A stretch of 24,000 bases of DNA from contig JBGTKO010000374.1 of assembly GCA_041744595.1 (NCBI GenBank), positions 10,904-34,903 on the forward strand, written 5' to 3'. Made by a program: the position numbers and the translations under genes. Source of the DNA: Pirellulales bacterium. GTDB lineage: Bacteria > Planctomycetota > Planctomycetia > Pirellulales > UBA1268. Of the stretch, positions 1,820 through 24,000 are shown piece after piece; the stretch's first letter is position 1, and the number at the start of each line of letters is the position of its first letter. The notes beneath the pieces were generated by a model. That model saw only the letters and a list, made by a program, of their open reading frames with translations. It had not been told where the DNA came from and made no database searches.

Positions 1820-2686
1820 ATGCCGCTCACGCTCGCCTTCAGCTCCAATGCCTACCTTGACGTGCCGGTTGAGGAGGCCGTCGCGCGGATCGCCGCCGCG
1901 GGCTACCGTGGCATCGAGCTTCTTGCCGATGTGCCCCACGCATGGCCGGCCGGGCTGCTGGAAGTCCAAAAGGAGACGATCCGCCGGGCGATCAAAGAAC
2001 ACGGCCTTACGATCTCCAACATCAACGCGTTCATGATGAACGCCGTGGCCGATCCGCGGCAGCCCTATTGGCATCCTGGTTGGACCGATCCCGACCCGCA
2101 CTACCGTGCCATCCGCCGTGAACACACAAAGCGGGCGCTTCGACTGGCTTCGGAGTTGGGAGCCACCACGATCTCGACCGAACCTGGCGGTGAGTTGGCC
2201 CTGGGGCAGTCGCGAGAGGAAGCCGAAACGATCTTCTATGACGAGATCATGCCGGTTCTCGATGTTGCGGCATCATGCAACGTGACCTTGCTCATCGAGC
2301 CCGAGCCAGGGTTGCTCATTGAGACGTTTGATCAATACCTCACGTTTGCCGCGCGAGTCGACCACCCATCGCTCGGCCTCAACTTCGACGTTGGCCACGC
2401 CTACTGTGTGGCCGACGACCCCGCAGAATGGGTGCCACGGCTCGTCGGGCACACGCGGCACTACCACGTAGAGGACATCGCCGCCACGCGGGTGCACCAC
2501 CACCTCGTGCCAGGGGAAGGAGCGATCGATTTTACGGGCGTGCTTCGCGCGATTGCGACTTATACGCCCGATATCTGGGTGACGGTGGAGCTCTATCCCT
2601 ACCGTGACCGACCCGACGACGCTGCCCGCGCGGCCCGGGCTTACCTCCTCGCGGTGGCACGCGATGCGGAAGTGGAGCTCACCTGA
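1820..2686 (+). CDS. Sugar phosphate isomerase/epimerase (xylose isomerase-like TIM barrel)
   Basis: 288 aa. The N-terminus (FSSNAYLDVPVEEAVARIAAAGYRGIEL) and later metal-ligand-like segments (LLIEPEPG, NFDVGHAY, HYHVEDI, VTVELY) are typical of the AP_endonuc_2/xylose-isomerase-like fold. The stop overlaps the next start by 1 nt. Confidence 0.8.
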   Translation: MPLTLAFSSNAYLDVPVEEAVARIAAAGYRGIELLADVPHAWPAGLLEVQKETIRRAIKEHGLTISNINAFMMNAVADPRQPYWHPGWTDPDPHYRAIRREHTKRALRLASELGATTISTEPGGELALGQSREEAETIFYDEIMPVLDVAASCNVTLLIEPEPGLLIETFDQYLTFAARVDHPSLGLNFDVGHAYCVADDPAEWVPRLVGHTRHYHVEDIAATRVHHHLVPGEGAIDFTGVLRAIATYTPDIWVTVELYPYRDRPDDAARAARAYLLAVARDAEVELT

Positions 2687-3612
2687 TGCTTGCCTGGTTG
2701 CGCATTATTCGGATACCGAATCTGGCGACGGCGGCTGCCGATGCGCTGGCGGGCTATCTCGTGATCGCAGGGCTTCGCGAGCTTGCGTGGCCGCCGGCTG
2801 CCTGCGGCCTCGCCGTGGCGGCGGTTGTGGCGCTCTACGCGGCAGGCATCGTGTTCAATGATGTGTGCGACGCGGAGCTCGATCGCCGCGAGCGACCGGA
2901 GCGGCCGCTGCCGAGCGGTGCGATTGACTCACGAGCTGCAGCGATCGCCGCCGGTGGGCTTGGGGTTGCAGGGTTGTTCCTGGCCGGTGGAGCGAGCTAC
3001 CAGACGGCATCTCCTTGGCCGGCGGCAGTCGCCGCCATTCTCGCTGGATGTATTTGGCTCTATGACCGCCACGCGAAGGGCACCTCGCTCGGACCGATCG
3101 TCATGGGCACCTGCCGAAGTCTTGCGTGGCTCGTGGGAATGACGGCGGCCGGTGGCCCGAACGAGATTTATGAGTGGCTCATCCCGGCAGGCATGGGGCT
3201 CTACGTGGCGGGTATCACGCTCTACGCTCGGGACGAGGCAGCCGAAAGCCAGCAGCGGAACACCCTCATGGCAGGCACCGTTGTCACGCTTCTCGGTCTT
3301 GTCGTAGCCGCAGGTTTTGTGTGGCTGCCTGAACGCGAACCGATTGAGCTTGCGGCTGGTGCTCAGATGCCTGTGACCACCTGGCTTCTGCTCTGGTCGG
3401 TGATCGGCACGTCGATCTTCTACCGCATGGCGGAGGGCATCGCCGACACCGAGCCGCGCCGCATCCGTTTCGCGGTCGGTAACGCCATCATGTCGATCAT
3501 CACGCTCGATGCCGTGCTCGTCCTGGCGGCCTGTGGCGAGCAGTGGGCGATCGTCGTTCTTTGTCTCTTGGCCTGGTTTCTGTTTTTCAAGCGTCTCGTG
3601 CCGCCGACCTGA
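2686..3612 (+). CDS. UbiA-family aromatic/polyprenyl prenyltransferase (membrane)
   Basis: 308 aa, multi-TM. It has the first Asp-rich motif NDVCDAELDRRERPERPLPSG (NDxxDxxxD followed by RPLxSG). ATG 2686-2688 overlaps TGA 2684-2686 of the upstream gene, suggesting translational coupling. Confidence 0.85.
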   Translation: MLAWLRIIRIPNLATAAADALAGYLVIAGLRELAWPPAACGLAVAAVVALYAAGIVFNDVCDAELDRRERPERPLPSGAIDSRAAAIAAGGLGVAGLFLAGGASYQTASPWPAAVAAILAGCIWLYDRHAKGTSLGPIVMGTCRSLAWLVGMTAAGGPNEIYEWLIPAGMGLYVAGITLYARDEAAESQQRNTLMAGTVVTLLGLVVAAGFVWLPEREPIELAAGAQMPVTTWLLLWSVIGTSIFYRMAEGIADTEPRRIRFAVGNAIMSIITLDAVLVLAACGEQWAIVVLCLLAWFLFFKRLVPPT

Positions 3613-3640
3613 CGCACGGCGAGCAAGGTGGCCTCAGACG

Positions 3641-4534
3641 ATGCTTCTTGGCTACAGCACCAACAGTATCGGTGAGATTGATCCGCTCGATGCGGTGCCG
3701 ATCCTCGCGGATCTCGGTTACCGGTCGCTGGCAATCACGCCTGACCGACACCTCCTGAATCCATGTGCCGCGGGACTCGCGGCAGAGGTGTCTCACTGGC
3801 AACGGGTGCTCGAGGCGCATCGCGTGGCATGCGTTATCGAGACGGGCGCCCGCCACCTGCTTGATCCGCGTGTCAAGCATGAGCCGACGCTTGTCTCGGC
3901 GGACCGCGAGGCTCGCAGTCGGCGGGTTGAGTTCACGCGACGCGCGATTGACATCGCAGCCGATCTGGGGGCGAGTTGCGTGTCTTTTTGGAGCGGTGTG
4001 GCCCGCGACGCGGCTCCCGAAGACGTGATCCAGGCTCGACTCGTCGAGAGCCTCCGCCCGATCCTGGAGCACGCGGAGAGTCGCGGCATCACGCTCGGCT
4101 TCGAGCCCGAGCCGGGCATGGTGATCGACACGGTCGCAAGGTATGCCTTGCTCGTCGAGCAACTCGGCCACTCTTCGGTGCTCGGCCTCACGATCGACAC
4201 GGGGCACCTCGAGTGCCTTGGCGAGCGGCCGGCCGCTGACGTGATCGCACCATGGGCGACGCGGATCGTGAACGTTCACATCGACGACATGCTCGCCTGC
4301 CGACACGAACACCTGCCGCTCGGCACGGGTGACGTTGACTTTGCACCGATCTTCGCGGCCCTCGCCGCAGCCGGCTTCTCCGGGGGCCTGCACGTGGAAC
4401 TCCCGCGGCAGACCCACCGCTGGTTCGACACTGCCCGCGAGTCGGCCTGCTTTATTCAGCGGCTCGTCAATCCAAGCCCACCTGCGCGAGCAGGTGGGAC
4501 GGCGGGTAGCTCGCCGTCCAGTTTTCGATCGTGA
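3641..4534 (+). CDS. Sugar phosphate isomerase/epimerase (xylose isomerase-like TIM barrel), second paralog
   Basis: I chose in-frame ATG 3641 (MLLGYSTNSIG...) over the track start at 3509, which overlaps the UbiA gene. Motifs: LGFEPEPG, TIDTGHLE, NVHIDDM, LHVELP. Confidence 0.8.
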   Translation: MLLGYSTNSIGEIDPLDAVPILADLGYRSLAITPDRHLLNPCAAGLAAEVSHWQRVLEAHRVACVIETGARHLLDPRVKHEPTLVSADREARSRRVEFTRRAIDIAADLGASCVSFWSGVARDAAPEDVIQARLVESLRPILEHAESRGITLGFEPEPGMVIDTVARYALLVEQLGHSSVLGLTIDTGHLECLGERPAADVIAPWATRIVNVHIDDMLACRHEHLPLGTGDVDFAPIFAALAAAGFSGGLHVELPRQTHRWFDTARESACFIQRLVNPSPPARAGGTAGSSPSSFRS

Positions 4535-11788: not shown

Positions 11789-13456
11789 ATGAAGCGCCCC
11801 GTGCTCCCGCCGGGGTTCGCGGGCCCCGCGAGCCGATACCCTCTTTGTCACTACGCGCCTGCCGCTCCCCCCGCTCACTCATCGATGCCATTCTCATTCG
11901 ACCACGCCCTCCGGACTCCGCCGTCGCGCGGGTCATCCTGGCGGTGGCATTTTGTCTGTTTCGCATCTTGTGCGATCGTCTGCGCCGTGCCGATTGCCCT
12001 GGCACACGCGGGGCCGCCAAGCAAGGCTCGCGGAGGATTCGGACGGTTCTTCGAAGGGATGACAAAGCCCCGACCGGAGCCGACCCCCTCATTCATCCCG
12101 GTGCCCACACCGCCTGGCGCCGATGAGGTCGAGCGGCTCGAAAAAATTGCGGCTCGCAACCGACCGCCAGTTCCGCGGCCAGAGCCCGCTCGGCTTCCAT
12201 CATGGGACGAGTCGTCCGACTTTATCGAGGCCGCCAAGACATCAGTTTCCAAAATCCTTGCTGATGCCGCTGCGCGGGATTATCAGCCAGCGCCGAGGCC
12301 ACCTGAAACCGTCACAGTGCCACCGCGACCGGCCGCGGCTGGTCGAACGGTTCCGCTGGTCGTCACACGGTTGGAATCCTCGGGCATGCCGGCCCCTGCC
12401 ACGCAGCGATTCGAGCGGCTGCGGAAATGGATCGGACACACGCTCGTCATGTATCAGCGGCGGCCTCTCAACACGGCCCAGCACACGCCCTGGGAAGTCA
12501 TGCACGGATTTATCGCCTTCGGAATTCCGACCCAGATTCGGGTTGGCGGGCCGGGAGGTGACCTTGCGAGCGCCATCGGCTGGTCGAACTCGGGCGGTGT
12601 CTGCCGTGGACAGGCGATGCTGACCGTGACGGGAGACCGGCTCCACGCCCTCAAGGGCGTCGGCCTCCAGGGGCACTCTGCCCAGTATCTCGCCATTCTG
12701 GCTCAGTGTCGCGTGGCGGCTGGGTCGCCGATCGTCGTCCAGGGCAAACGGTTCACCGTGGCCGATCTCATCGAGGAGGAAAAGCTGTCCTGCAAAGCGG
12801 GCACGGAGCTCACCTTCGCACTCATCGCGCTGGCCCACTACCTGCCGACCGACTCCACCTGGACTGCCCGTGACGGTGAGTCCTGGTCTATTCCGAGGCT
12901 TGTCGAGGAGGAGATCGTGCAGCCGATCCGCGGCGCTGCCTGCGGCGGAACGCACCGGCTATTTGGTCTGTCTTACGGATGCCAGCGAAGACTCAAGGCG
13001 ACCGGGCAGCTCGACGGGGCGTACCTCCGGGCCGACCGCTATGTCCGTGACTTCCAAAACTTCACGCTCACGAAGCTCCAGAACCGTGACGGCTCCTTCA
13101 GCACCGAGTGGTTCAAGTACCCGGCGGACCGTGAGGACGACATCGACCGCAAAATCCAGACGACGGGGCACATCCTCGAGTGGCTCGTGGCCTCTCTCGA
13201 CCAAGAGCGGCTCTACGACCAGCGGATCGTCGCTGCCACCGAGTTCCTTTGTCGGGCCCTCATGCGAGAGCCCTCCCGCGATTGGAAGATCGGTCCTCTC
13301 GGGCACGCCCTCCACGCGCTGAACATGTATCAGGAGCGGGCCTGGGGCGTCGTGCTGCCGGGCGGTATTGCCGCGTTCAATGGGCCGATGAAGGCAGGGC
13401 GGGAGCGGACTGTCACGGCCGAGCAGCCCCGTGCCGGCAACAGGAAGATGCGGTAG
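11789..13456 (+). CDS. Hypothetical exported or membrane protein with a Pro-rich linker and a large C-terminal domain
   Basis: I chose in-frame ATG 11789, preceded by AAGGGAAGG, over the track start at 11651, which overlaps the HEAT gene. It has a hydrophobic segment (WHFVCFASCAIVCAVPIALAHA) and a Pro-rich region. The C-terminal domain carries an LQNRDGSFS motif reminiscent of QxxDG(S/G)(F/W) repeats of alpha/alpha-toroid proteins, which is weak evidence. Confidence 0.55.
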   Translation: MKRPVLPPGFAGPASRYPLCHYAPAAPPAHSSMPFSFDHALRTPPSRGSSWRWHFVCFASCAIVCAVPIALAHAGPPSKARGGFGRFFEGMTKPRPEPTPSFIPVPTPPGADEVERLEKIAARNRPPVPRPEPARLPSWDESSDFIEAAKTSVSKILADAAARDYQPAPRPPETVTVPPRPAAAGRTVPLVVTRLESSGMPAPATQRFERLRKWIGHTLVMYQRRPLNTAQHTPWEVMHGFIAFGIPTQIRVGGPGGDLASAIGWSNSGGVCRGQAMLTVTGDRLHALKGVGLQGHSAQYLAILAQCRVAAGSPIVVQGKRFTVADLIEEEKLSCKAGTELTFALIALAHYLPTDSTWTARDGESWSIPRLVEEEIVQPIRGAACGGTHRLFGLSYGCQRRLKATGQLDGAYLRADRYVRDFQNFTLTKLQNRDGSFSTEWFKYPADREDDIDRKIQTTGHILEWLVASLDQERLYDQRIVAATEFLCRALMREPSRDWKIGPLGHALHALNMYQERAWGVVLPGGIAAFNGPMKAGRERTVTAEQPRAGNRKMR

Positions 13457-13610
13457 GGTTTGCGGGTCGAGCGGGGCGTGCTTGATCCCTCCGCCTAGCC
13501 GTCGTACGCTTCGGGCGCGGGTGTTCCCCGACGGTGTCTCAGGCCCACTCGGCGTCTCTTCCGCGCCCCCCCGGCCGGTGCCGGACGCCCGGCTTGAGTG
13601 GAGTGGATCG

Positions 13611-14540
13611 ATGATGGCAGCGAATGTCACCCCGCAGCTCGAACAGCTTCTCGAGCTGGCAACGCGGCTGTACGAAGCGACGGGCGCCGAGGCGGTCCTC
13701 CTGCTGGTCGACAGGCGGTTGGACTGGGCTCGCGTTCGGCACATTGCAGGGTCCGCGCCTCTCCTCGTTGCCGCCGACGAAAAGGCCGATCTTATCGGAG
13801 CAGAAGAGCATGCCCTCCGGACCGTCGTCCTCGACGTGGTGGGCCTCCCCGTCCATGAGCGGCTTGCCCAGTCGCTGCTCGAATGCGTGGCGGCTGACCT
13901 TCTTGTTCCGGAGGCCCAGGTTGTTGCCGTGTACAGCGGTTTTGAAGCCGACACGATCGACTCGGTGAGCATCCTCAGGCTTTCCGAACACTTGGGCCAG
14001 CTCACGGCCCGTGACCTGCGAAACCTCGAGACGAAAGTGCCGCTCGAGACGCTCAAGGTCGTGGTTGATCTCGCCGTCGAAATCGGCCGCGAGGGCCGCG
14101 AAGGCAAGCCTGTGGGGACGCTCTTTGTTGTCGGTGATACCCGCAAAGTCATGCAGGCAAGCCATTCAGCCGGCTTCGATCCCGTTCGCGGCTATGGGAG
14201 AGTGGAGCGTCGATTGAGCGATCCACGCGTCCGCGAAGGGATCAAGGAGATTGCCCAGCTCGATGGTGCATTTGTGGTCGGCTCCGATGGCACGGTCGAG
14301 GCAGCCGCTCGCTACATCGACGCCTCTGCCGAGAGCGTGTCGGTGGCCAAGGGGCTCGGAGCCCGTCACTGGGCTGCCGCGGCGATCACCCGTCGCACGA
14401 AGAGCGTGGCCGTGGCCGTAAGTGAGACCAGTGGCACGGTGCGAATCTTTCAGGACGGCGAGGTCGTGCTCCGCATCGAGCCCTTCCGCCGCGCGATGAA
14501 GTGGAAGGATTTCGAGTACGAGCCGCGGAGCGGCGACTGA
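13611..14540 (+). CDS. DisA_N/DAC-domain protein (putative diadenylate cyclase, atypical)
   Basis: I chose in-frame ATG 13611 (MMAANVTPQ...). The C-terminal half has the DAC hallmarks in order: GTLFVVGD, LDGAFVV (DGA motif), GLGARHWAAAAIT (RHR position reads RHW), and VAVSETSGTVRIF. The N-terminal roughly 150 aa has no TM helices and no DisA-type HhH. The stop lies 7 nt before polA. Confidence 0.6.
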   Translation: MMAANVTPQLEQLLELATRLYEATGAEAVLLLVDRRLDWARVRHIAGSAPLLVAADEKADLIGAEEHALRTVVLDVVGLPVHERLAQSLLECVAADLLVPEAQVVAVYSGFEADTIDSVSILRLSEHLGQLTARDLRNLETKVPLETLKVVVDLAVEIGREGREGKPVGTLFVVGDTRKVMQASHSAGFDPVRGYGRVERRLSDPRVREGIKEIAQLDGAFVVGSDGTVEAAARYIDASAESVSVAKGLGARHWAAAAITRRTKSVAVAVSETSGTVRIFQDGEVVLRIEPFRRAMKWKDFEYEPRSGD

Positions 14541-14547
14541 CGTTGCC

Positions 14548-17292
14548 TTGGCGGTGTCATCGGAAGCCACGACAAGCGTGCCTGACCTCACAGGCAAGAC
14601 CGTCTTCGCGATCGATCTCTTGTCGCGTGCCTACCAGCTCTTCCATGCGCTCCCGGAGATGACGGCCCCTGACGGCCGGCCGGTGTCGGTCGTCTTCGGA
14701 CTCACCCGCGACCTGCTCGACATCATCGAGAAGCGAAAGCCCGACTATCTCTTTTGCGGCATGGACGCAGCAGGGCCAACGTTTCGCCACGAGCGATTCG
14801 AAGCCTACAAGGCCAACAGGGCCGAAATGCCCGCCGACCTCGTGACGCAAGTTCCGCTGGCCCGGAAGCTGCTCGAGGTCATGGGCATTCCGTGCCTGGA
14901 GCTGCCTGGCTTCGAGGCGGATGACGTGCTGGCGACCCTTGCCACGCGGGTTGCCGCCGCGGGTGGTACCTGCACGATCGCCACGAGCGACAAAGACGCC
15001 CGCCAGTTGCTCAGTGACCGCGTTGAGCTCCTCAACCTCAGAAACAACTCTGCCCTCAGGGCCGCCGAGCTCGAGGCCGAGTGGGGCATCCGGCCCGATC
15101 AGGTCGTCGATTTTTTGGCGCTCGTGGGCGACGCGGTCGATAACGTCCCCGGCGTGCCTGGGATCGGTCCCAAGATTGCGGGAGAGCTCCTTCAAAAGTT
15201 TGACACACTCGACGGCGTGCTCGCCAATATCGACAAGGTGTCAGGGGCCAAGCGCAAGGAGAATCTCACGGCTCACGCGGCAACCGCGAGGGAAGGGCGG
15301 GAGCTCATCCGGCTCGACACAGCCGCGCCGATCGACATTCCGTGGGAGGCAGGGAAGCGACACGAGCCCGACGCCGAGACGCTCGCGGCGCTTCTTCGTG
15401 AATTTGGCTTCCGCAGCCTCTTGGGGCGGGTGCAGGTGAAGGCTGCCGCGCCAGCACCGGCTCGTCGTCGGCAGGCCGCCACGCTTTTTGACATGAGCGA
15501 CGAGCCGGAGTCTGAACCGCAGGCACGAGCCGACATCGTGCTGCCAGCTTCCGCTGCCGAGGAAGACGCGATCGTCGAGAAGCTCAGGTCGCTTCGTGAG
15601 CTTGCCATCTGTGTCTCGCTGCCAAAGGGGGCGACACCGATGACACGGCCGATCGGCATGGCACTCACCGCCGGTGACATGGTCACCTGGTTTTCGGCTG
15701 ATCAACTCGCACGCCATGAACCGCTCCGGTCGCTCTTGGCCGATCCAGCGATCGCCAAACGCGGGCATGATCTCAAGCGACACGATGTCGCCCTCCGCGC
15801 GCTCGGCATCACGCTTCATGGAGCGTCGTTTGACACGCTCCTCGCGGCCTATCTCCTCGAAGCCGGTGAGCGGAACCTCGGGCTCGTTGAAACCTGTCGC
15901 CGCCACGGCCTTGGCCACCTCGTGCCGGATGATCCAGCCGCCGCCGCTGCCATCGAGCATCCGTCCGATCCCGCTGGTGCCGCGGCCCACACGGCCGCTG
16001 TCGCGGCGCTGGGCGAAATTCTTCCGGCGGCGCTCGACAAGGCTGGTCTTTCGTCGCTTTACAACGACCTCGAAATGCCGCTCTCCAGCCTCCTTGCCGA
16101 CATGGAGTGTCGCGGCGTTCAAATCGATACGGCCGTTCTCGCGAGGCTTTCGTCCGACTACGCCACGCGACTCGCGGTCCTCGAGAAGGATATCCACGCG
16201 CTCGCCGGCAAGTCATTTTCAATTGCGTCGCCGATTCAGTTGCGGGAGGTGCTCTTCAAGGATCTCGGCCTCCCGGTGATCAAGAAAACAAAAACGGGCG
16301 CGAGTACCGACGCCGACGTTCTCGAAGAGCTTGCTCCGCAGCATCCGTTGCCCGCGAAGCTGCTCGAGCACCGGCGGTATGCCAAGCTCAAGAGCACATA
16401 TGTCGATGCGCTGCCGTTGCTTGTGGATCCCATGACGCATCGGATTCACACGACGTTCAACCAAACGGTTGCTGCAACGGGCCGGCTTAGCTCGAGCGAC
16501 CCGAACCTCCAGAACATCCCGATTCGCACGGCCGAGGGCCAGCAGATCCGGGCCGCCTTCATCCCAGGCGAACCGGGCTGGCGTTTTGTTGCTGCCGATT
16601 ACTCCCAGATCGAGCTCCGCGTGCTGGCCCATCTCTCGGGTGACACGGCGATGAAAGACGCCTTTGCCTCTGGCGTCGATATCCACATTCGCACCGCAGC
16701 GGCGGTCTACGGCGTCGCCGAAGATGAAGTCGATGGCGCGATGCGTCGCACAGCCAAGGCCGTGAACTTCGGGATTCTCTACGGCCAGAGCGGCTTTGGG
16801 CTCGCCAAGAGCCTTGGCATTCCACAGGCCGATGCGGTGGCATTCATCGCCGCCTACCTCGCGACGTTCGCGGGCGCGGCGGCCTGGATGGACGACATTC
16901 TCGCCCGCTGCCGGCGAGAGGGCCATGTGACCACGATCCTCGGTCGGCGCCGCGGGATCACAGGCGTCCGTGATCGTGAGGGACGGCGTGGCCCCGGCGG
17001 CGTCCCGACCCTCACGCTGCCTGAGCGCACAGCGATCAACACCGTCGTGCAAGGCTCGGCGGCTGACCTCATCAAGCTCGCGATGCTCGCCGTCGATCGC
17101 CGTCTTCGCGACGAGAAGCTCCGAGCCGCCATTGTGCTCCAGATCCACGACGAGCTCATCCTTGAAGCACCGGCCGATGAGGTCGCCGCGGTCGAACGCC
17201 TCGCCACCGAGGAGATGCGTGGTGCGATGCAGCTTGATGTTCCCCTTGAAGTATCCGTCAGTTCCGGCGCCACGTGGGCGGAGTGCGGGTAG
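14548..17292 (+). CDS. polA: DNA polymerase I
   Basis: 914 aa starting at a TTG codon; GTG 14554 is also possible. It has a 5'-nuclease domain (FAIDLLSRAYQLFHAL ... IATSDKDARQL ... GVPGIGPKIA). The polymerase motifs are present: DYSQIELRVLAHLSGD (motif A), RRTAKAVNFGILYGQS (motif B) and QIHDELILEAP (motif C). Confidence 0.95.
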   Translation: MAVSSEATTSVPDLTGKTVFAIDLLSRAYQLFHALPEMTAPDGRPVSVVFGLTRDLLDIIEKRKPDYLFCGMDAAGPTFRHERFEAYKANRAEMPADLVTQVPLARKLLEVMGIPCLELPGFEADDVLATLATRVAAAGGTCTIATSDKDARQLLSDRVELLNLRNNSALRAAELEAEWGIRPDQVVDFLALVGDAVDNVPGVPGIGPKIAGELLQKFDTLDGVLANIDKVSGAKRKENLTAHAATAREGRELIRLDTAAPIDIPWEAGKRHEPDAETLAALLREFGFRSLLGRVQVKAAAPAPARRRQAATLFDMSDEPESEPQARADIVLPASAAEEDAIVEKLRSLRELAICVSLPKGATPMTRPIGMALTAGDMVTWFSADQLARHEPLRSLLADPAIAKRGHDLKRHDVALRALGITLHGASFDTLLAAYLLEAGERNLGLVETCRRHGLGHLVPDDPAAAAAIEHPSDPAGAAAHTAAVAALGEILPAALDKAGLSSLYNDLEMPLSSLLADMECRGVQIDTAVLARLSSDYATRLAVLEKDIHALAGKSFSIASPIQLREVLFKDLGLPVIKKTKTGASTDADVLEELAPQHPLPAKLLEHRRYAKLKSTYVDALPLLVDPMTHRIHTTFNQTVAATGRLSSSDPNLQNIPIRTAEGQQIRAAFIPGEPGWRFVAADYSQIELRVLAHLSGDTAMKDAFASGVDIHIRTAAAVYGVAEDEVDGAMRRTAKAVNFGILYGQSGFGLAKSLGIPQADAVAFIAAYLATFAGAAAWMDDILARCRREGHVTTILGRRRGITGVRDREGRRGPGGVPTLTLPERTAINTVVQGSAADLIKLAMLAVDRRLRDEKLRAAIVLQIHDELILEAPADEVAAVERLATEEMRGAMQLDVPLEVSVSSGATWAECG

Positions 17293-17367
17293 GGTCCGCC
17301 GCCGTGACATGCACGTTGCGTGCGCATTTCGCACAGCTACCTGTTCACCACGCCTTGCCATGCCGTC

Positions 17368-17395
17368 GTGGCGCACGCCTCCAGGCGTGCGAATG
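17368..17395. repeat. Left arm of a perfect 28-bp inverted repeat; the arm is itself a hairpin (CGCACGCC-TCCA-GGCGTGCG)
   Basis: GTGGCGCACGCCTCCAGGCGTGCGAATG is the exact reverse complement of 17531-17558. It lies 76 nt downstream of the polA stop. Confidence 0.85.
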
Positions 17396-17530
17396 GGGTG
17401 TCCATACTCGAAACCCCGGATACCTTCGGGAAAGCGTGACTTCGCGCCACCCCGACGAGCGTTGCAGGATCTTGTCATGGGAAGCGAGCAAAAACTCGAA
17501 GATCCGAGCGACTGTTCCTCAGGCAGCCGG

Positions 17531-17558
17531 CATTCGCACGCCTGGAGGCGTGCGCCAC
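17531..17558. repeat. Right arm of the perfect 28-bp inverted repeat (CATTCGCACGCCTGGAGGCGTGCGCCAC)
   Basis: Exact reverse complement of 17368-17395. The two arms are 135 bp apart. Confidence 0.85.
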
Positions 17559-17671
17559 ATGCGTTGCGGCCGTGAGGCCAACCCCAAGCGGATGCGGTTC
17601 ACGACTCATCCTCAACCAATGGCGAGAAAGGCTCATAGCGCCCGTTTGGTCAAATAAAAGTAAAAGCCCCT

Positions 17672-17746
17672 CTCGAGTTCTTCACATATGTCCTCGGACT
17701 TTCCCATCGCGTCCGCACTGGCGACCTCGAATGTGGTCACTCTTGA
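17672..17746 (+). pseudogene. 3'-terminal remnant (last ~24 codons plus stop) of a paralog of the LuxR/GerE-type HTH gene at 19434-19751
   Basis: It translates to LEFFTYVLGLSHRVRTGDLECGHS*, compared with HEFFTYILGLSHRIRPDEAECSHS* at the end of the intact gene. In the first 14 codons the differences are three synonymous third-position changes plus two V/I swaps. The frame is closed by TAG 17636-17638 and no HTH-coding part lies upstream. Confidence 0.7.
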
Positions 17747-17922
17747 TGACGCAATAATGCGGACCACAAAATGACAGCTTGCAGAAAGTGATGGCACCGA
17801 TACGTTAGCCACACTCACCTGATAGGCGGTGACCGGTGGCCCACACCCTCCAGGACAGATCAAAAAGGGACACACCGGTGTCAAGTAAACGTCGCCTGAT
17901 TCCAAGATTCAGGAGTTGCCCC
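17747..17922 (+). repeat. Copy A of a conserved non-coding leader (paralogous to 19752-19927)
   Basis: My hand alignment shows strong blocks. GGACCACAAAATGACAGCTTG aligns with GGACCCAAAAATGACAGCTTG. TAGGCGGTGACCGGTGGCCCACACCCTCCAGGACA aligns with TAGGCGATGGCCAGTGGCCGACGCCCTCTGGAACA. CGCCT..CAAGA..AGGAG precedes the ATG in both copies. The length from the GA(G/A)TTCTTCAC anchor to the ATG is 248 nt in both copies. Confidence 0.7.
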
Positions 17923-18033
17923 ATGGGCCGCACTTTCGGCGGGCTCATTCACCTAAGTCACGAGCATCGCCAGCCAGCGTGTAACGCCGAGGATGCTATC
18001 TGGAAAGCTTCGATGGCTGGTGATGTCACGTAA
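17923..18033 (+). pseudogene. Probable decayed 5' fragment of a paralog of the heme-oxygenase-like gene at 19928 (36-codon ORF)
   Basis: The ATG sits at the same offset behind the conserved leader, with an AGGAG 7 nt upstream. The 3' part, GAAAGCTTCGATGGCTGGTGATGTCACG, aligns with GAAGCTTTCGCTGGCTGGTGGGATGACA in the intact gene (peptides IWKASMAGDVT vs LLKLSLAGGMT) after a 21-nt indel. It ends at TAA 18031-18033. The first ~60 nt align only weakly. Confidence 0.45.
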
Positions 18034-18076
18034 TTCGTTCGGGATGACTTGCTACCGCAGGGCTTTGCGGCGGATC

Positions 18077-18168
18077 GCATGCGAACGATGGCGCTTGGGA
18101 TCGTGCCACGGCGAGTCGGTTCGGTTACAGAGTTTCTCGCGGGTTTGTGCCGGGCCTACAGTTCACCC
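18077..18168 (+). repeat. Left copy of a ~92-bp inverted repeat bracketing the desaturase gene
   Basis: By my hand alignment it matches the reverse complement of 19168-19259 at 75 of 92 positions. The core CGGTTCGG..ACAGAGTTTCTCGCGGG.TTGTGCC is nearly identical. Weaker similarity with an indel extends outward by about 25 nt. The copy ends 61 nt before the desaturase start. Confidence 0.8.
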
Positions 18169-18229
18169 AACGTGGGTAGTCCCAGGTTGCGGAAGTGTCT
18201 TTGGCGGTTCTATCCTTGAGAGGTGATTT

Positions 18230-19132
18230 GTGAACGGTTGCTCCTCGACACTATCCGTGGCCGCTAAGGCATGCCCTTCGCGACGAACTGAACAGCCGAT
18301 CAACTGGCCCGTGTTGGTCTCGTTCACGCTGATGTATATCGGAGCCGCGCTGGCCCCCTTCCATTTCTCCTGGAGTAGTCTGGGGATAGCGGTGGTCCTC
18401 TACTGTGTAACTGGAATGGCCATCACGCTGGGCTACCACCGTCTTTTGACTCATCGCAGTTTCCAAACCTTTGACTGGCTGCGCAATGTCATCGCCTACT
18501 TCGGATGCATGGCCTTCATTGGCGGGCCCCTGACCTGGGCCGAAATTCATCGGCTTCACCACCAGCACTCTGACGAGGAGGAGTATCCTCATCGTCCGCA
18601 CGACGGGTTCCTTTGGTCGCACGTGCTATACGCCTTCCGCCTCGATCCCGATTCACACAGGGCACTGAACTACGTAAAGGATCTCAGGCTATCGGGAGTT
18701 CTGACTTGGCTGGAAAAGTGGAGCTTTGTCCCTCAGTTATCGAGCTTCGTTGCACTCTACATCCTCGGCGAGCTTGTCTCCCCGGCCCCCTGGGGTTCCG
18801 GGTTGGGGCTCTCGTGGCTGCTGTGGGGTGGATTTGTCCGAACCGTCGTGATGTTAAATGCTGCGGGACTTGTGAACTCCGTGACCCACATCGTTGGGTA
18901 CCGAAATTTTGAGACCAAGGATAACTCACGAAATCTCTGGTGGGTCGCGCTGATCACCTTCGGCGAGGGCTGGCACAACAACCACCATGCGCAACAGCGT
19001 TCTGCCGCTCATGGAATGTTGTGGTGGGAACTCGATCCCACGTTTTGGGCGATCCGCCTTCTGAGTGCGTTCGGTTCGGCCTGGAACATTGTTGAACCGA
19101 TCGTACCGGATCGCCTGCCACGGGTGACATGA
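18230..19132 (+). CDS. Membrane fatty-acid (acyl-CoA/acyl-lipid, Delta9-type) desaturase
   Basis: 300 aa with a GTG start preceded by GAGAGGTGA. The three His boxes are in canonical order: HRLLTH, HRLHHQHSD, HNNHHA. Hydrophobic hairpins flank them. Confidence 0.85.
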   Translation: MNGCSSTLSVAAKACPSRRTEQPINWPVLVSFTLMYIGAALAPFHFSWSSLGIAVVLYCVTGMAITLGYHRLLTHRSFQTFDWLRNVIAYFGCMAFIGGPLTWAEIHRLHHQHSDEEEYPHRPHDGFLWSHVLYAFRLDPDSHRALNYVKDLRLSGVLTWLEKWSFVPQLSSFVALYILGELVSPAPWGSGLGLSWLLWGGFVRTVVMLNAAGLVNSVTHIVGYRNFETKDNSRNLWWVALITFGEGWHNNHHAQQRSAAHGMLWWELDPTFWAIRLLSAFGSAWNIVEPIVPDRLPRVT

Positions 19133-19167
19133 GAGCCAATGATGGCCAGTGCGTGTTGTCAGGGATC

Positions 19168-19259
19168 GGTTCTACGGTGGGCCTGGCACAACCCCGCGAG
19201 AAACTCTGTGGCCGAACCGCCTCGCGGTGGGACGATCCCAAGTGCCGCCCTTCGCATTC
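19168..19259 (-). repeat. Right copy of the ~92-bp inverted repeat bracketing the desaturase gene
   Basis: It is the reverse complement of 18077-18168 at about 80% identity. It starts 35 nt after the desaturase stop and lies about 175 nt upstream of the HTH gene start. Confidence 0.8.
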
Positions 19260-19433
19260 AAACCTCCGCAAGGACGCAGCCCTCCAGGCCGGGGTTCACT
19301 CCCACGACCGGCGCAAAAAAGTTTTCTGGGTTCTGTGCGTTGTCTTGGCATGGCCGTTCAAAGCCGCCCACACGACCGCCGACCCCAAATCCACCCCCGG
19401 CCCACGCCACTCCCCCCGCAGCTGACTGCCGCC

Positions 19434-19751
19434 ATGGCCCGCCCCACAACCAAACCCCACGCAACCCGCAAGGCATCCCTCCCCCCCCTCCCTTTGGACC
19501 GCGGACATTGGCAGGCGATCGTGGCCGCGATCGGTCTTTCGCCGCGGGAAGCGGAAGTGGCCGAGCTCAAGATCCGCGGCGCGCAGCTCAAGGAAATGGC
19601 CGCCCTCCTGGGCATCGCAGTAACCTCGGTGCGGGGCTTCCAGGACCGCATCTGCGCGAAGGCGGGCATCCGCCGTCACGAATTCTTCACGTATATCCTC
19701 GGGCTTTCCCATCGCATCCGCCCGGACGAGGCCGAATGTAGTCACTCATGA
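19434..19751 (+). CDS. Small LuxR/GerE-type helix-turn-helix transcriptional regulator (HTH domain only)
   Basis: I chose in-frame ATG 19434 (105 aa) over the track starts at 19139/19149, which run through the inverted repeat and a Pro-rich low-complexity translation. LSPREAEVAELKIRGAQLKEMAALLGIAVTSVRGFQDRICAKAGI fits the GerE pattern (LxxRExEVxxL...G...KEIAxxLxISxxTVxxHxxxIxxKLG). No receiver or ligand-binding domain is present. No clear Shine-Dalgarno sequence is seen, so the start is uncertain. Confidence 0.7.
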   Translation: MARPTTKPHATRKASLPPLPLDRGHWQAIVAAIGLSPREAEVAELKIRGAQLKEMAALLGIAVTSVRGFQDRICAKAGIRRHEFFTYILGLSHRIRPDEAECSHS

Positions 19752-19927
19752 CGACGCAGTACTGTGGACCCAAAAATGACAGCTTGTGGATTGTAATACC
19801 ATGGTTAACGTAGCGACGACCTCTTGGTAGGCGATGGCCAGTGGCCGACGCCCTCTGGAACAAAACAAGAATAAACAGCCCGTAGTCGATTCTTTGCCGA
19901 CCGCCTACAAGAACGAGGAGGTATCTC
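19752..19927 (+). promoter_or_regulatory. Conserved leader (copy B) between the HTH gene and the heme-oxygenase-like gene; candidate promoter, operator or leader RNA
   Basis: It is conserved in blocks with 17747-17922 (see that feature). It contains the palindrome GGCCAGTGGCC and ends with GAGGAGG 7 nt before ATG 19928. The function is inferred only from this paralog conservation. Confidence 0.35.
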
Positions 19928-20620
19928 ATGGACCAAGTCATTGCCATCGTCGAACAGGCCAAGGAGTATTTCCATGCGGACCTCTTGAAGCTTTCGCTGG
20001 CTGGTGGGATGACAAGGCCGGTCTATGTGAGGTACTTGTCCTTTCAATACCATCTTACAAAGGGCGTGCAGCGACACTTCCTGGCGATCGCTGCTCATCC
20101 CTCACTCTCTGGCAGGCGGCAGTTTCGTAATTTCCTCTATGGCTTCGCCCTTGAAGAGGAACCCCATTTTGACATTGCCCGCCACGACCTGGAAAGCATG
20201 GGAGAAACACCGCTTCCCTGTCCGCTCGATGTCCGGTTGTGGTGGCATTATTTCGATACGGTTGTGGTAACACGGCCATTTGTGCGATTAGGGGCGACGT
20301 GCGTACTCGAGAATCTCGGTGCCGGAGCCGGTCCACTGGGGCATCGGCTGTTGGACGAGGCTCAATTCCTCAATGAACGAAACACACGATTCCTTCAGAT
20401 CCATTTTCACGAGGAACTTCCGCACGGCGACCAGATTCTGGCAGCCCTCAATGCAGCGAATGTGACCGCTCAGGAAGAGACCGACTTGGTGGAAGGAGCC
20501 AGAACAGGAGCGATCATGTACCTCCGGATGGTGCGGTGGGCGCTCGGCTGTGCTGACGTTACGAATGCGTTTTCCATACATACCGAGCCACTACCCCCGA
20601 CGCCGATCCTGTGTCCCTGA
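19928..20620 (+). CDS. Heme-oxygenase-like fold protein (iron-containing redox enzyme / HDO-like, putative diiron oxidase)
   Basis: 230 aa with a strong RBS. The sequence reads as all-helical. It carries carboxylate/His motifs spaced as in the Haem_oxygenas_2/PqqC/CADD-type families: FALEEEPHFDIARHDL, CVLENLGAG, LQIHFHEELPHGD. Confidence 0.55.
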   Translation: MDQVIAIVEQAKEYFHADLLKLSLAGGMTRPVYVRYLSFQYHLTKGVQRHFLAIAAHPSLSGRRQFRNFLYGFALEEEPHFDIARHDLESMGETPLPCPLDVRLWWHYFDTVVVTRPFVRLGATCVLENLGAGAGPLGHRLLDEAQFLNERNTRFLQIHFHEELPHGDQILAALNAANVTAQEETDLVEGARTGAIMYLRMVRWALGCADVTNAFSIHTEPLPPTPILCP

Positions 20621-20720
20621 GTATCGGGGTACACGGAAAAAAAGAGGAGCGGCGTTATCAGCCTGCCCGCCGGTGAGCCCCGACGCAGCAGATGTCGGCA
20701 CTTTTCAGGAGACCGTTCCA

Positions 20721-21488
20721 ATGCAAATCCAGGTGAACGGTGATCATGCCACGACGATCTCTAGCGCTGGCGAAGCAGCAATCGAGCCCTCGGGAAGTGA
20801 TGTCGGTCGGCATACGCTTTCTTTGGGTCCCACTCTCGACCGGATGACAATGAGAGCGCCACCGAGCTACACGGTGGAACAAATCGATCCGCAGTCTCGG
20901 ATGTTCGACCAGGTGCTTGCATTGAGGGGGCTCGCCTACCGCCGTGAGGAGGCCGGCAAGCGAGAAGAGATCGACGACTATTCGATCCATCTCATTGCTC
21001 GGCATGATGACGTCGTGCTGGGGGCCTTGCGGGTAACCTGTTACCAGCATGGGCCGTTCGAGTCACATGACCGCTATCCACGATGGCTGTTGGATGAGTT
21101 TGGCGACCGGATGAGTGCTGCGAGCCGGATGTGTATAAGACCAGAGTTGGCGGGGTGCTCGTCAATTCCACACGATCTGACCGTGCGTGGCTGGTCCACA
21201 GTGTTGCCAATGGGAGTGCGGATAGACGTTTCCAAGGCGAGGCTCAAGGCAATCCCATACTACATGAGAATGGGATACGTGTTCGTCCAGGACTCGATCT
21301 TTCGGTTTCATCACTGGGATGCAATGTGTGGTCTGATTGTCTATCCGGCGAATGCAGCGCATCGTGGCCAGTTTTGGAAGGTGTTTGAGAATATCGACAG
21401 CCCTTGTGACCTGCTGGCGTCAGTCAACGCGAATCGCTTCTCGGCTTCCTACCGTGACGTTCGGAGGGCATCCGAAGCAGCGATCTGA
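20721..21488 (+). CDS. GNAT-superfamily N-acyltransferase of the N-acyl amino acid synthase / OlsB / autoinducer-synthase-like type
   Basis: I chose ATG 20721 (AGGAG 9 nt upstream) over the track start at 20550, which overlaps the previous gene. MFDQVLALRGLAYRREEAG..EIDDYSIHLIARHDDVVLGALRV resembles the (L/F)R..VF..E.g...E.D.yD..a.HL......vG..R(L/V) signature of Acetyltransf_5/NAS-type enzymes. The later segments SRMCIRPE and AIPYYMRMGYVF fit the GNAT core. Confidence 0.55.
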   Translation: MQIQVNGDHATTISSAGEAAIEPSGSDVGRHTLSLGPTLDRMTMRAPPSYTVEQIDPQSRMFDQVLALRGLAYRREEAGKREEIDDYSIHLIARHDDVVLGALRVTCYQHGPFESHDRYPRWLLDEFGDRMSAASRMCIRPELAGCSSIPHDLTVRGWSTVLPMGVRIDVSKARLKAIPYYMRMGYVFVQDSIFRFHHWDAMCGLIVYPANAAHRGQFWKVFENIDSPCDLLASVNANRFSASYRDVRRASEAAI

Positions 21489-21536
21489 CCTCTTCCTCCC
21501 ACAGACGGAGGCGATGGATCAAGGCAAGGACCATAG

Positions 21537-24000
21537 ATGGACATGCAACGAGCGCTTCGGCTGTTGAGAGTGTTCTACCTCGCTCGCGAGGTAGATCGCG
21601 TTGAGGACGAGTGCGTGCGGCAGGGCAGGGCGGCCTTTCATGTCTCCGGCGCGGGGCATGAGAGCCTGGCGGCAGTTGCCGAGGAACTGCTTCCGCAAGA
21701 CTTTCTTCACCTTCATTATCGCGACAAGGCCCTCCTGCTCGGGCGAGGTCTGCCGGTACGGGAGTTCTTTCTGAGCCTTCTGGGTCGCAAGGAATCCCAC
21801 TCCGCCGGACGGCAAATGAGCGCGCATTACTGCTGGAGAAACCTCAATGTGCTCAGCATGGTTGGACCTGTGGGGAACAATGCATTGCAGGCCGTAGGCG
21901 TGGCAGCGGCCGTGAAGGACGACCCGCAGAAGCCAATCGTGTTCTGCACGATTGGCGATGGTACGACGCAGGAGGGCGAGTTTCTGGAGGCCATCACGGA
22001 AGCAGCACGCCATCCGGTGCCCGTGGTCCTTGTCGTCGAGGACAATGGGTGGTCGATTTCAACGGCGACGACCGGGAAGCTGTTTTACAGTTCGCTTGAA
22101 GATGAATCGCGGTTCTGTGGGATCGACTTTCAACGCTTCGACGCTCATGACCCACATATGGTGGCTGATCGATTTGCGGGAGTCATTGGTCGAGTGCGGG
22201 AAACCAGGCTTCCCGCGATTGTGGTTTGCAGATGTGCCCGACTGTGTGACCACACCAATTCCGACGAACAGACGAAATATCGAGACGCGGCCGAGTTGCG
22301 GGCGCTCGCCGATCGGTGTGATCCCGTAAGGGTGTTAGAGGCGTCTCTGGAGAATCGGGGAATCCAATGCCGTGAGCTTGCAAGGTTGAAAGAAGAGTGC
22401 ACGGCTGTCGTGGCCGAGGCGGCCGCCGCGGCGTTCCGCTGTCCGGAGCCGGAGCCCTTTTTTGGTTCAAAGTGTGCCTTACCGCCGACTCGCTTTGGCG
22501 ACGCGGTCACATCCGAGCTCGCGGATGGCCCGCGTCTGACGATGCGGGAGGCCATTAATGAAGTATTACGGTTCCGATTGACGCATGACGACCGGACTGT
22601 GCTGTTAGGGGAGGACATTGAGGATCCGAAAGGAGACGTGTTTGGGGTCACCCGCGGGCTGAGCACCGAATTCCCGGGAAGAGTGTCGAATTCCGCATTG
22701 TCGGAGGCGACAATTCTTGGTGTCAGCATCGGGCGGGCGTTGGCTGGGCAACGGCCTGTGGCTTTCATCCAGTTTGCCGATTTCCTGCCGCTGGCGTTCA
22801 ACCAAATTGCGACCGAGCTTGGGAGCATGTACTGGCGCACATGTGGCGCATGGCAGTGTCCTGTGATTGTCATGATCGCGTGTGGTGGGTATCGTCCTGG
22901 CCTCGGGCCGTTCCACAGCCAGACCCAGGAATCGCTGGGCGTGCATGTGCCAGGGCTCGATGTTGTGATGCCATCGACATCGGCAGACGCGGCAGGCTTG
23001 CTCAATGCGGCACTTGAAAATGGCAGACCAACGCTCTTTTTCTACCCGAAGGCGTTGCTGAATTCTTCGGATCACGCGACCGCATTGAGGCCGCAATCGC
23101 ACTACGTGCCACTCGGGCAAGCCAGTTTCTTGTGCCACGGCGACGAGCTCACACTCGTCAGTTGGGGCGCGGCTCTTCATGAGTGCGAGAAAGCGGTCGA
23201 TGTGTTGACGAAGCATGGGATCAGCGTCGATCTAATTGACTTGCGGTCGCTCTCACCGTGGGACCACGAGTCTGTCTGTGCCTCCGCGGCGCGGACGGGC
23301 CGACTTCTCGTCGTGCATGAGGACAATATCACGTGCGGCTTTGGGGCGGAGGTGGTCGCTACGGTGGGAGAGCTGGTAGATCGGCCCGTAAAAGTGAGTC
23401 GTATTGCCAGAGCGGATACCTACATTCCATTTCATTTTCCCAGTCAGATGGAGATTCTGCCGTCCTGGAAGCGTGTGCTGAACGCGGCTGCTTCGATGCT
23501 CGGATGGGAGTTGACATGGACGATGGGCTCCGAGGCCGATGCCGCTTTCTGCGAGGTTTCCGCTTTGGGATCGGGGCCGGCCGACGATGTGGTGGAGGTG
23601 GTGGCCCTTCGTGTGGGCATCGGCGACGAAGTGGTGGTGGGTCAGTTGCTAGCCGAAGTTGAAGCGGCGAAATCGGTGGTGGAGATTGTCGCTGGCGTTG
23701 CTGGCGTCGTTTCAGACATTGGGGTGCGCGAGGGGGAGCATGTTCGGGTCGGGCAGAGCTTGTTGCGAATACGCCGCTCCGGCAATCTCGCGAGTCAGGC
23801 AGCCCATGATGTCAATAGGAAGGAGCTCACCATTCCGGTTTTGCGACGGAGCCGTCGGGAATTAAGCAGCCGCACCACGACGGCCGAGGCGGGATCACGG
23901 CATCCAGAGCCTATTGTTCTGGCCAGGGAATCGAATGGAGTGAGGAACGGGGAACTGATCTATCTCTCGCGGCCGAGCGTCGTGTTTGGCGGCCGGTTGG
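21537..24000 (+). CDS. Fused 2-oxoacid dehydrogenase E1 alpha + E1 beta + lipoyl/biotinyl-like domain protein, continuing past the window end
   Basis: This ORF is not in the supplied track because it has no stop in the window. I translated it by hand from ATG 21537 (TAG immediately upstream, AAGGA 6 nt before) and found no stop through 24000. The alpha part has HVSGAGHE and the TPP motif GDGTTQEGEFLEAITEAARHPVPVVLVVEDNGWSIS. The beta part has MREAINEVLRFRLTHDDRTVLLGEDIEDPKGDVFGVTRGL...RVSNSALSEATILGVSIGRALAGQRPVAFIQFADF. A lipoyl-like domain follows, with IGDEVVVGQLLAEVEAAKSVVEIVAGVAGVVSDIGVREGEHVRVGQ (Lys codon 23670-23672). After that come a linker and the start of a further domain. The minus-strand ORFs listed in this interval are antisense shadows. 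Confidence 0.85.
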   Translation, partial: MDMQRALRLLRVFYLAREVDRVEDECVRQGRAAFHVSGAGHESLAAVAEELLPQDFLHLHYRDKALLLGRGLPVREFFLSLLGRKESHSAGRQMSAHYCWRNLNVLSMVGPVGNNALQAVGVAAAVKDDPQKPIVFCTIGDGTTQEGEFLEAITEAARHPVPVVLVVEDNGWSISTATTGKLFYSSLEDESRFCGIDFQRFDAHDPHMVADRFAGVIGRVRETRLPAIVVCRCARLCDHTNSDEQTKYRDAAELRALADRCDPVRVLEASLENRGIQCRELARLKEECTAVVAEAAAAAFRCPEPEPFFGSKCALPPTRFGDAVTSELADGPRLTMREAINEVLRFRLTHDDRTVLLGEDIEDPKGDVFGVTRGLSTEFPGRVSNSALSEATILGVSIGRALAGQRPVAFIQFADFLPLAFNQIATELGSMYWRTCGAWQCPVIVMIACGGYRPGLGPFHSQTQESLGVHVPGLDVVMPSTSADAAGLLNAALENGRPTLFFYPKALLNSSDHATALRPQSHYVPLGQASFLCHGDELTLVSWGAALHECEKAVDVLTKHGISVDLIDLRSLSPWDHESVCASAARTGRLLVVHEDNITCGFGAEVVATVGELVDRPVKVSRIARADTYIPFHFPSQMEILPSWKRVLNAAASMLGWELTWTMGSEADAAFCEVSALGSGPADDVVEVVALRVGIGDEVVVGQLLAEVEAAKSVVEIVAGVAGVVSDIGVREGEHVRVGQSLLRIRRSGNLASQAAHDVNRKELTIPVLRRSRRELSSRTTTAEAGSRHPEPIVLARESNGVRNGELIYLSRPSVVFGGRL

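Follow-up and report, generated by a model that had tools for sequence, protein, structure and literature searches.

The window analysed here is a stretch of 24,000 nucleotides (nt) from a Pirellulales bacterium (contig JBGTKO010000374.1, assembly GCA_041744595.1), and the element under study is the segment 17668-18022, termed copy A, which repeats in part the region between a small helix-turn-helix (HTH) regulator gene and the oxidase gene behind it, termed copy B. After polA (14548-17292) the features were found in the following order: two palindromic hairpins, the copy A region, one arm of an inverted repeat, a desaturase gene, the second arm of the inverted repeat, the gene for a regulator of 105 amino acids (aa), a leader of 176 nt, the gene for an oxidase of 230 aa and the gene for a GNAT-like protein. 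The window, with an overall G+C content of 62%, has the look of planctomycete chromosomal DNA, given its DUF1570 gene and the Pirellulaceae relatives of the oxidase described below; across 17400-21500 the G+C content was 54-58% (about 65% in the regulator gene) versus 62-69% upstream in the polA region, which would agree with a gene island directly 3' of polA that was acquired or is evolving differently. Judged from its sequence, copy A is a non-coding relic of a dispersed segmental duplication. The features of the locus are listed below with their coordinates in the window, strands and supporting evidence.

17668-17746, + strand: 3'-terminal relic of the LuxR-type regulator gene with its last 23 codons and stop (tblastn with the regulator, 16 of 23 residues identical, E 2e-10)
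17732-17782, + strand: operator-like motif of copy A (profile from 8 loci outside the window, position weight matrix (PWM) and alignment)
17747-17922, + strand: 176-nt leader of copy A; another conserved block lies at about 17820-17859, and the ATG is preceded by an AGGAG Shine-Dalgarno sequence
17923-18033, + strand: 36 codons left from the decayed 5' end of the heme-oxygenase-like gene (24-mer with 19/24 identical, local score z about 4.9)
18065-18162, no strand: left arm of a 98-nt inverted repeat (BLASTN)
18230-19132, + strand: fatty acid (acyl-CoA type) desaturase, downstream of copy A (PF00487, E 3.4e-19)
19174-19271, no strand: right arm of the 98-nt inverted repeat (BLASTN)
19434-19751, + strand: intact 105-aa LuxR/GerE-type HTH regulator, from whose lineage the relic derives (PF00196, E 3.4e-4, score under the gathering threshold)
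19737-19787, + strand: operator-like motif of copy B, overlapping the regulator stop codon (profile E 2.8e-5; PWM 30.4)
19752-19927, + strand: 176-nt leader of copy B
19928-20620, + strand: heme-oxygenase-like (CADD/UndA-fold) putative dimetal oxidase (AlphaFold2 model, Foldseek, invariant Glu/His)
20721-21488, + strand: GNAT-like protein, perhaps an N-acyl synthase (weak PF13444 match); its gene adjoins that of the oxidase as a conserved partner in all planctomycete-type loci

Extent and coding content of the repeat

In an earlier interpretation of this DNA (the sequence-only reading), the regulator tail, the leader, the ribosome-binding site with its ATG and the 5' end of the oxidase gene had been described as occurring twice, and this was borne out as a genuine, diverged and colinear copy. 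Positions 17668-18022 (355 nt) corresponded to 19673-20006, with a fixed offset of 2005 nt up to the ATG, and the comparison of 17300-18300 with 19100-20700 by BLASTN returned a single direct match, 17668-17866 with 19673-19871, which was ungapped over 199 nt and 74% identical (E 2e-32). Identity at the offset of 2005 nt was judged against that at about 23,600 other offsets within the window. For the regulator tail (59/72 identical) and for the leader at 17747-17866 (83/120 identical) it was unequalled at any other offset, for the ATG-proximal leader at 17867-17922 it was 30/56 with 28 at the best other offset, and for the first 38 nt past the ATG it was 15/38 and not significant. The similarity is not limited to the tail of about 75 nt, because the leader without the coding tail still gave a match with E 2.8e-10. 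The motif was 83% identical between the two copies and the tail 81%, against 60% for the remainder of the leader.

Past the ATG, the 21-nt indel and the oxidase-like stretch behind it were recovered as they had been described. The 24-mer at 17999-18022 matched 19983-20006 at 19 of 24 positions in a register shifted by 21 nt; this match was unequalled at 23,854 other offsets, and its local alignment score of 26 was compared with a null of 15.7 ± 2.1 (about 4.9 standard deviations). The stretch corresponds to codons of the conserved K-x-S-x-A-G segment at the oxidase N-terminus. The homology of copy A may reach to about 18048, via the 8-mer GGGATGAC past a 19-nt insertion, at about 15 nt from the repeat arm. 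The landmarks in between also agree with the sequence-only reading, namely the regulator stops at 17744-17746 and 19749-19751, the length of 176 nt for both leaders, the ATGs at 17923 and 19928, which give copy A the same ATG offset as copy B, the TAA at 18031-18033, with which the oxidase-start frame of copy A ends, and the in-frame TAG at 17636.

The removal of the HTH-coding part had been assigned to that TAG; instead, the homology ends sharply at about 17668 and the HTH part is absent. Remnants of the 5' part of the regulator gene upstream of 17668 were found neither by BLASTN nor by ungapped identity (25-40% there) nor by sensitive tblastn. An AT-rich stretch, CAAATAAAAGTAAAAG (17640-17667), abuts this sharp left edge of the duplicate, the rest of the window having a G+C content of 62%. 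On this reading of the alignment the copied span of about 355 bp is made up of the last 23 regulator codons, the intergenic control region with the leader and approximately the first 25 oxidase codons. A similarity that is far above chance and exceeds one functional element is that of a segmental (partial) duplication within the locus.

The regulator tail of copy A is non-coding now, there being no in-frame start after the TAG at 17636. Among its 23 codons 13 nucleotide differences from copy B were counted, which fall on codon positions 1, 2 and 3 in the numbers 5, 2 and 6, respectively. The substitutions had been taken to be mostly synonymous or V/I changes, and as a sign that the copy diverged under coding constraint before it was truncated. 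By count, 5 are synonymous and 8 non-synonymous, and the constraint was not demonstrated: the ratio of non-synonymous to synonymous substitution rates (dN/dS) was 0.42 over the 23 codons (Fisher p = 0.16) and 0.18 in the 14 codons of the conserved last helix (p = 0.078). Copy A may have been under coding constraint for a time; the tail data would be fitted equally well if copy A had ceased to code at once and only copy B had been constrained. The relic tail and the window regulator share T86, Y87, G90, L91, R94 and an EC-HS ending against the family consensus, and from these shared lineage-specific residues it follows that the relic is a within-lineage copy of the window regulator gene.

The operator-like motif and the regulator family

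The window regulator scored 20.6 bits against PF00196, for which the gathering score is 23.5 bits. Its family is small, with 12 homologues besides the window protein among 5.8 billion proteins, and a precomputed PF00196 match was present in 10 of these 12, the family alignment being colinear. No matches to the family were obtained in viral contigs and plasmids. The regulator, of about 100 aa, carries a short conserved N-terminal LPPLPL-x-P-D-H-W segment.

Every fetched locus of the family (L046, L047-L055, L131-L135 and L137) was found to carry a motif of about 50 nt at or just past the stop codon of the regulator. Its core is a 7-4-7 palindrome (consensus GTCGTCA-N4-TGACGAC), within which the stop codon usually falls; the right arm recurs directly 14 nt on (WTGNCGAC), and a weaker third half-site follows another 14 nt on. 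In copy A the palindrome is GTGGTCA-CTCT-TGATGAC (17733-17750), with the direct half-sites ATGCGGAC (17757-17764) and ATGACAGC (17771-17778) in the same 14-nt phasing, and in copy B it is GTAGTCA-CTCA-TGACGAC, followed by the half-sites CTGTGGAC and ATGACAGC.

A profile of the motif was built from 8 loci outside the window, with L137 and L133 held out. Against the 24-kb window it returned 19738-19785 (E 2.8e-5) and 17733-17780 (E 3.7e-4), the next match having an E of 1.1. Against the 137 fetched loci (784 kb) it returned one site per family locus, at or after the regulator stop and including the held-out L137 and L133, and in the other approximately 120 fetched loci nothing below E 0.4 was found. 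The presence of two copies of the motif was peculiar to the window among all fetched loci. With the PWM, copy A scored 29.2 and copy B 30.4, and the best other position on the + strand of the window scored -9. Where the two copies differ, the deviation from the family consensus lies on copy A at 4 positions and on copy B at 2, and 3 positions could be assigned to neither. The motif is kept in loci whose regulators share 55-74% identity and are followed by unrelated genes, and nucleotide similarity between the window and the loci of the regulator homologues was confined to the regulator coding sequence. From its conservation, its symmetry and its linkage to the gene across the family, the motif is inferred to be a candidate operator of the adjacent regulator. 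The family-wide motif within the repeat is a new result, missed in the sequence-only reading, and it makes a present regulatory role for copy A plausible.

Palindromic sites of two kinds, the lux-box type sites and the NarL heptamer pairs, are known as operators of LuxR/GerE-family (NarL/FixJ-type) HTH regulators. As in that family, the window protein is small, has a putative GerE-type four-helix DNA-binding domain and lies beside an 18-bp 7-4-7 palindrome with more half-sites after it, a layout that would be expected if a dimer or oligomer were to bind. Unlike LuxR and NarL regulators, it has no receiver or autoinducer-binding domain; and unlike the sites of the lux-box and NarL systems, the predicted binding site overlaps or follows the regulator stop codon instead of lying upstream, with half-sites phased at 14 nt. 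When the arm sequence was compared with a residue of the recognition helix, RAF was found with GACGAC, RCF with GAGGGC, and RGF with GAGGAC or GACGAC, a correlation which is confounded by phylogeny.

Several regulator homologues lie beside recombination genes. In L047/L049 (397-3661) the homologue adjoins a trio of tyrosine recombinases, in L050 (3599-5918) an integrase fragment and a resolvase, and in L131 (146-1384) a divergent integrase of 412 aa; in the P0131 contig it is placed by an integrase, with an HTH_17 gene upstream and an rve transposase gene downstream. These neighbourhoods suggest that the regulator family rides on integrative elements; no such gene was found among the scanned long ORFs (open reading frames) of the window. 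In L047 (6710-10153), a type III CRISPR-associated set (Cmr5, RAMP proteins, a CARF-Card1 nuclease and Csx3) was located about 2.5 kb 3' of the regulator homologue.

The leader was also searched for an RNA or a peptide of its own. No Rfam match for a structured RNA or riboswitch was obtained at gathering thresholds or at E ≤ 1; the folding of the leader RNA was no better than that of shuffled sequences (z -0.74 for copy A and +0.23 for copy B), and the two-sequence consensus fold was weak (-17.7 kcal/mol over 206 nt). A conserved small protein on either strand was rejected, since each frame has stops in at least one copy and the two minus-strand leader ORFs of 90 aa do not share a frame in the ungapped alignment. 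Plasmid records and the loci fetched for relatives of the oxidase and the regulator yielded no nucleotide homologues of the leader or of the inverted repeat, the coding parts alone giving matches.

The desaturase, the oxidase and the origin of the duplicate

The label heme-oxygenase-like, which the oxidase had received from its sequence, proved right. Its AlphaFold2 model (pLDDT 90.4) gave in Foldseek a TM-score of 0.73 to 3dde and to the CADD entries 1rcw/8va9, with UndA and SznF also listed, and the residues E76, E77, E78, H80, H159, H161, E162 and H166 were invariant across 24 homologues. By its modelled fold and the conserved Glu/His residues, in which it resembles CADD, UndA and the SznF central domain, the 230-aa protein is classed as a heme-oxygenase-like putative dimetal oxidase. 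It had no Pfam match and no sequence-level match to any PDB chain.

The nearest relatives of the oxidase were found in metagenome-assembled genomes of Pirellulaceae, and in the planctomycete-type relatives (L001, L002, L040-45 and L136) a GNAT-like gene lies directly 5' of the oxidase gene. The closest oxidase (79% identity) is that of L136, whose desaturase is 56-57% identical to that of the window. There, at 2309-4365, a co-directional row is formed by the GNAT-like gene (split by a Transposase_mut insertion), the oxidase, the fatty acid desaturase, a SnoaL gene and a PEMT/ICMT methyltransferase gene. In the window the same three core genes are reordered (desaturase, regulator, oxidase, GNAT-like) into two units, with the motif and the leader before each. 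The GNAT-oxidase pair is often found in mobile contexts: in L043 (7032-11603) it lies by phage-like genes (Phage_capsid_4, ParB_N with an N6_N4 methylase, and DUF5131), and in L040 (5107-6196) by a DDE_3 transposase and an HTH_23 gene. As to a link with N-acyl-tyrosine (stieleriacine) clusters, PMC12479983 does not contain the words 'desaturase', 'oxygenase' or 'regulator', and no connection was made.

The desaturase gave a match to NF049918 (DesA family) with E 8e-28 and 97.6 bits against a curated cut-off of 400, which is not an equivalog assignment. The inverted repeat reported around its gene was confirmed, with arms of 98 nt at 18065-18162 and 19174-19271 that are 83% complementary (E about 1e-24), and may extend about 14 nt outward with a 6-nt indel. 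It may act through pairing of the two ends of the mRNA, may be an inversion switch or may be a scar of rearrangement. Between the arms, a segment of 1.2 kb holds the desaturase ORF alone, an arrangement like that of composite elements, invertible segments or elements of the type of miniature inverted-repeat transposable elements (MITEs). Unlike in such elements, there was no target-site duplication at the outer ends of the inverted repeat, no transposase, invertase or recombinase was found in Pfam scans of the long ORFs of the window, and no other copies of the arms were present in the window or in 136 fetched loci. Of the marks of transposable-element cargo (MITE-like or composite) the inverted repeats alone are present. 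Two further accounts of the arms were rejected. As decayed regulator tails (tblastn E 0.033), their nucleotide alignments did not surpass those of shuffled or genomic controls (p 0.13-0.87); as structured RNAs, three of the four strand and arm combinations had z values from -0.15 to -0.86 and one had -1.98, with no convincing covariation.

In the sequence-only reading the locus had arisen by tandem duplication of an HTH-leader-oxidase cassette, after which the upstream copy was disrupted, the desaturase sitting at the break and pointing to recombination or insertion activity. Of the 2005 nt that separate the two copy starts, the repeat covers only about 355; remnants of the oxidase or regulator gene were found in neither 18034-18229 nor 19133-19433; and the truncated copy lies upstream, although a breakpoint inside the regulator gene predicts it downstream. 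Given this short repeat, the lack of an oxidase remnant on the far side and the upstream truncation, a simple tandem duplication with insertion does not fit. Nor is the desaturase foreign cargo at a break: unlike the passenger of a passenger-carrying element, it is a regular member of the related gene cluster, in one co-directional row with the oxidase and GNAT-like genes in L136. Of that earlier account, therefore, the observed partial duplicate is confirmed, and the coding constraint, the tandem origin and the desaturase insertion are not. With 83% identity in the inverted repeat and 74-85% in the direct repeat, the two have diverged to a similar degree and could both stem from a single complex rearrangement. 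Like other relics of segmental duplication and duplicated promoters, copy A comprises a gene 3' end, a control region and the 5' end of the next gene, with the coding parts decayed; unlike them, it is dispersed at a distance of about 2 kb instead of being in tandem, lies beside a pair of 98-nt inverted repeats, and has a control function that is predicted from the motif.

Further upstream, a DacZ-type diadenylate cyclase gene (DacZ_P sensor domain and DAC domain) lies directly 5' of polA at 13431-14540. Just past the polA stop there is a perfect inverted repeat of 28 nt (17368-17395 and 17531-17558), each arm of which is itself a palindromic hairpin, CGCACGCC-TCCA/TGGA-GGCGTGCG; within the window the arm occurs just twice (chance expectation 0.01), and it is absent from the 137 fetched loci. 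Between the two arms, at 17509-17494, the minus strand carries a terminator-like hairpin.

Possible roles of copy A and their meaning

The duplicate is old, now stands in front of the desaturase gene and is ordinary genome evolution in kind, as a duplication relic or as control-region re-use. That copy A is an active second regulator-controlled region, now 5' of the desaturase, is given about an even chance. A dimer of the regulator would bind the motif as an operator, or as an operator with a promoter. Since the motif is read as the operator of the regulator, the duplication would have given two control regions answering to one regulator, of which copy A would serve the desaturase and copy B the oxidase-GNAT pair, and co-regulation of members of a reshuffled lipid-modifying gene set would result; the coding fragments of copy A, the regulator tail and the oxidase start, would be passengers without a function of their own. 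A further step, by which the regulator with the operator-like array at its stop codon is a portable control cassette that travels on integrase-bearing elements, is coupled to changing downstream genes and was here copied before a second unit, so wiring the lipid-modifying set (desaturase, oxidase and GNAT-like synthase) to one switch, is considered rather unlikely.

The chief rival is that copy A is inert, being decaying debris of a rearrangement (a duplication with deletions, or a copied fragment), with the desaturase expressed from another promoter or by read-through; this is a serious possibility, rated at somewhat less than an even chance. What speaks for activity is that the copy A motif is about as good as that of copy B, which belongs to the intact regulator, with the deviations from consensus spread over both copies and not concentrated in A; that the offset of the Shine-Dalgarno sequence and of the ATG has been retained exactly; that no intrinsic terminator was predicted on the + strand between copy A and the desaturase; and that the relic is directly 5' of, and co-directional with, a gene that is grouped with the oxidase-GNAT pair in the closest relative. 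Several results weigh on the other side. Simulated neutral decay from the inferred ancestor reached the copy A motif score in 12-28% of trials, and the retention of the motif in copy A is therefore not beyond chance. The identity levels fit a neutral copy A and a constrained copy B as well as constraint on both, the dN/dS of the tail was not significantly different from 1, a stop ends the frame of the oxidase start, the copy carries the 21-nt shift, and a second motif copy occurs in no other fetched locus. About 300 nt of decayed ORF together with one inverted-repeat arm separate the copy A ATG from the desaturase start. No sigma-70-type promoter was found in either copy by a consensus scan, to which planctomycete promoters may not conform. 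Across the family, the distance from the motif to the next gene varies from about 45 to 530 nt, so that the motif tracks the 3' end of the regulator gene and not the downstream start, and of about five distinct planctomycete-type loci just one has the desaturase together with the oxidase.

The palindrome at the stop codon could also be an mRNA hairpin, serving as a processing, stability or 3'-end signal, with the leader acting as RNA and copy A as its second copy. This is held to be very improbable. Compensatory changes do maintain the complementarity of the arms across the family (GTCGTCA/TGACGAC; GTCCTCA/TGAGGAC in L137; GCCCTCG/TGAGGGC in L055), and G-T combinations, which would be wobble pairs in RNA, occur in L054, L055 and copy A. 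However, the 7-bp stem has two plain mismatches in L050 and one in L132 and is not followed by a U-tract, the Rfam search was empty even at E = 1, and the leader and consensus folds were as weak as given above. In L054/L055 the GAC-to-G/CGC change recurs in the direct half-sites outside the stem; compensatory arms together with the same change in the direct half-sites favour protein half-sites over an RNA hairpin. A site of recombination, with the motif as an arm-type or attachment site of neighbouring tyrosine recombinases and with the duplicate and the inverted repeats as scars of site-specific recombination or cassette capture, would suit the recombinases and integrases beside the homologues in L047/L049, L050, L131 and the P0131 contig, the varying genes downstream of the motif and the drop in G+C content across 17400-21500. 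It is considered very improbable, no recombinase, transposase or invertase having been found in Pfam scans of the long ORFs of the window, target-site duplications being absent, the edges of the duplication (about 17668 and about 18022-18048) lying off the motif at 17732-17782, and L046 having no integrase within 2.7 kb. An assembly artefact, in which the direct or the inverted repeat stems from mis-joined reads of related strains, is hardly credible: the window does resemble part of a metagenome-derived contig, the longest contig listed for its own proteins being 36,244 bp, but the copies are 74-83% identical and differ along their whole length, which is too diverged for collapsed or chimeric repeats, and the surrounding ORFs are intact.

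If copy A is inert, it is an ordinary scar of rearrangement. If it is active as a second control region of the regulator, it would be a clean natural example of how the copying of a control region brings another gene under the same switch. The desaturase, the heme-oxygenase-like oxidase and the GNAT-like enzyme seem to make up a small pathway of lipid modification in a genome of planctomycete-like character, and as a by-product of the analysis a candidate operator is provided for an uncharacterised family of LuxR-type regulators of about 100 aa, which are often found beside integrases.

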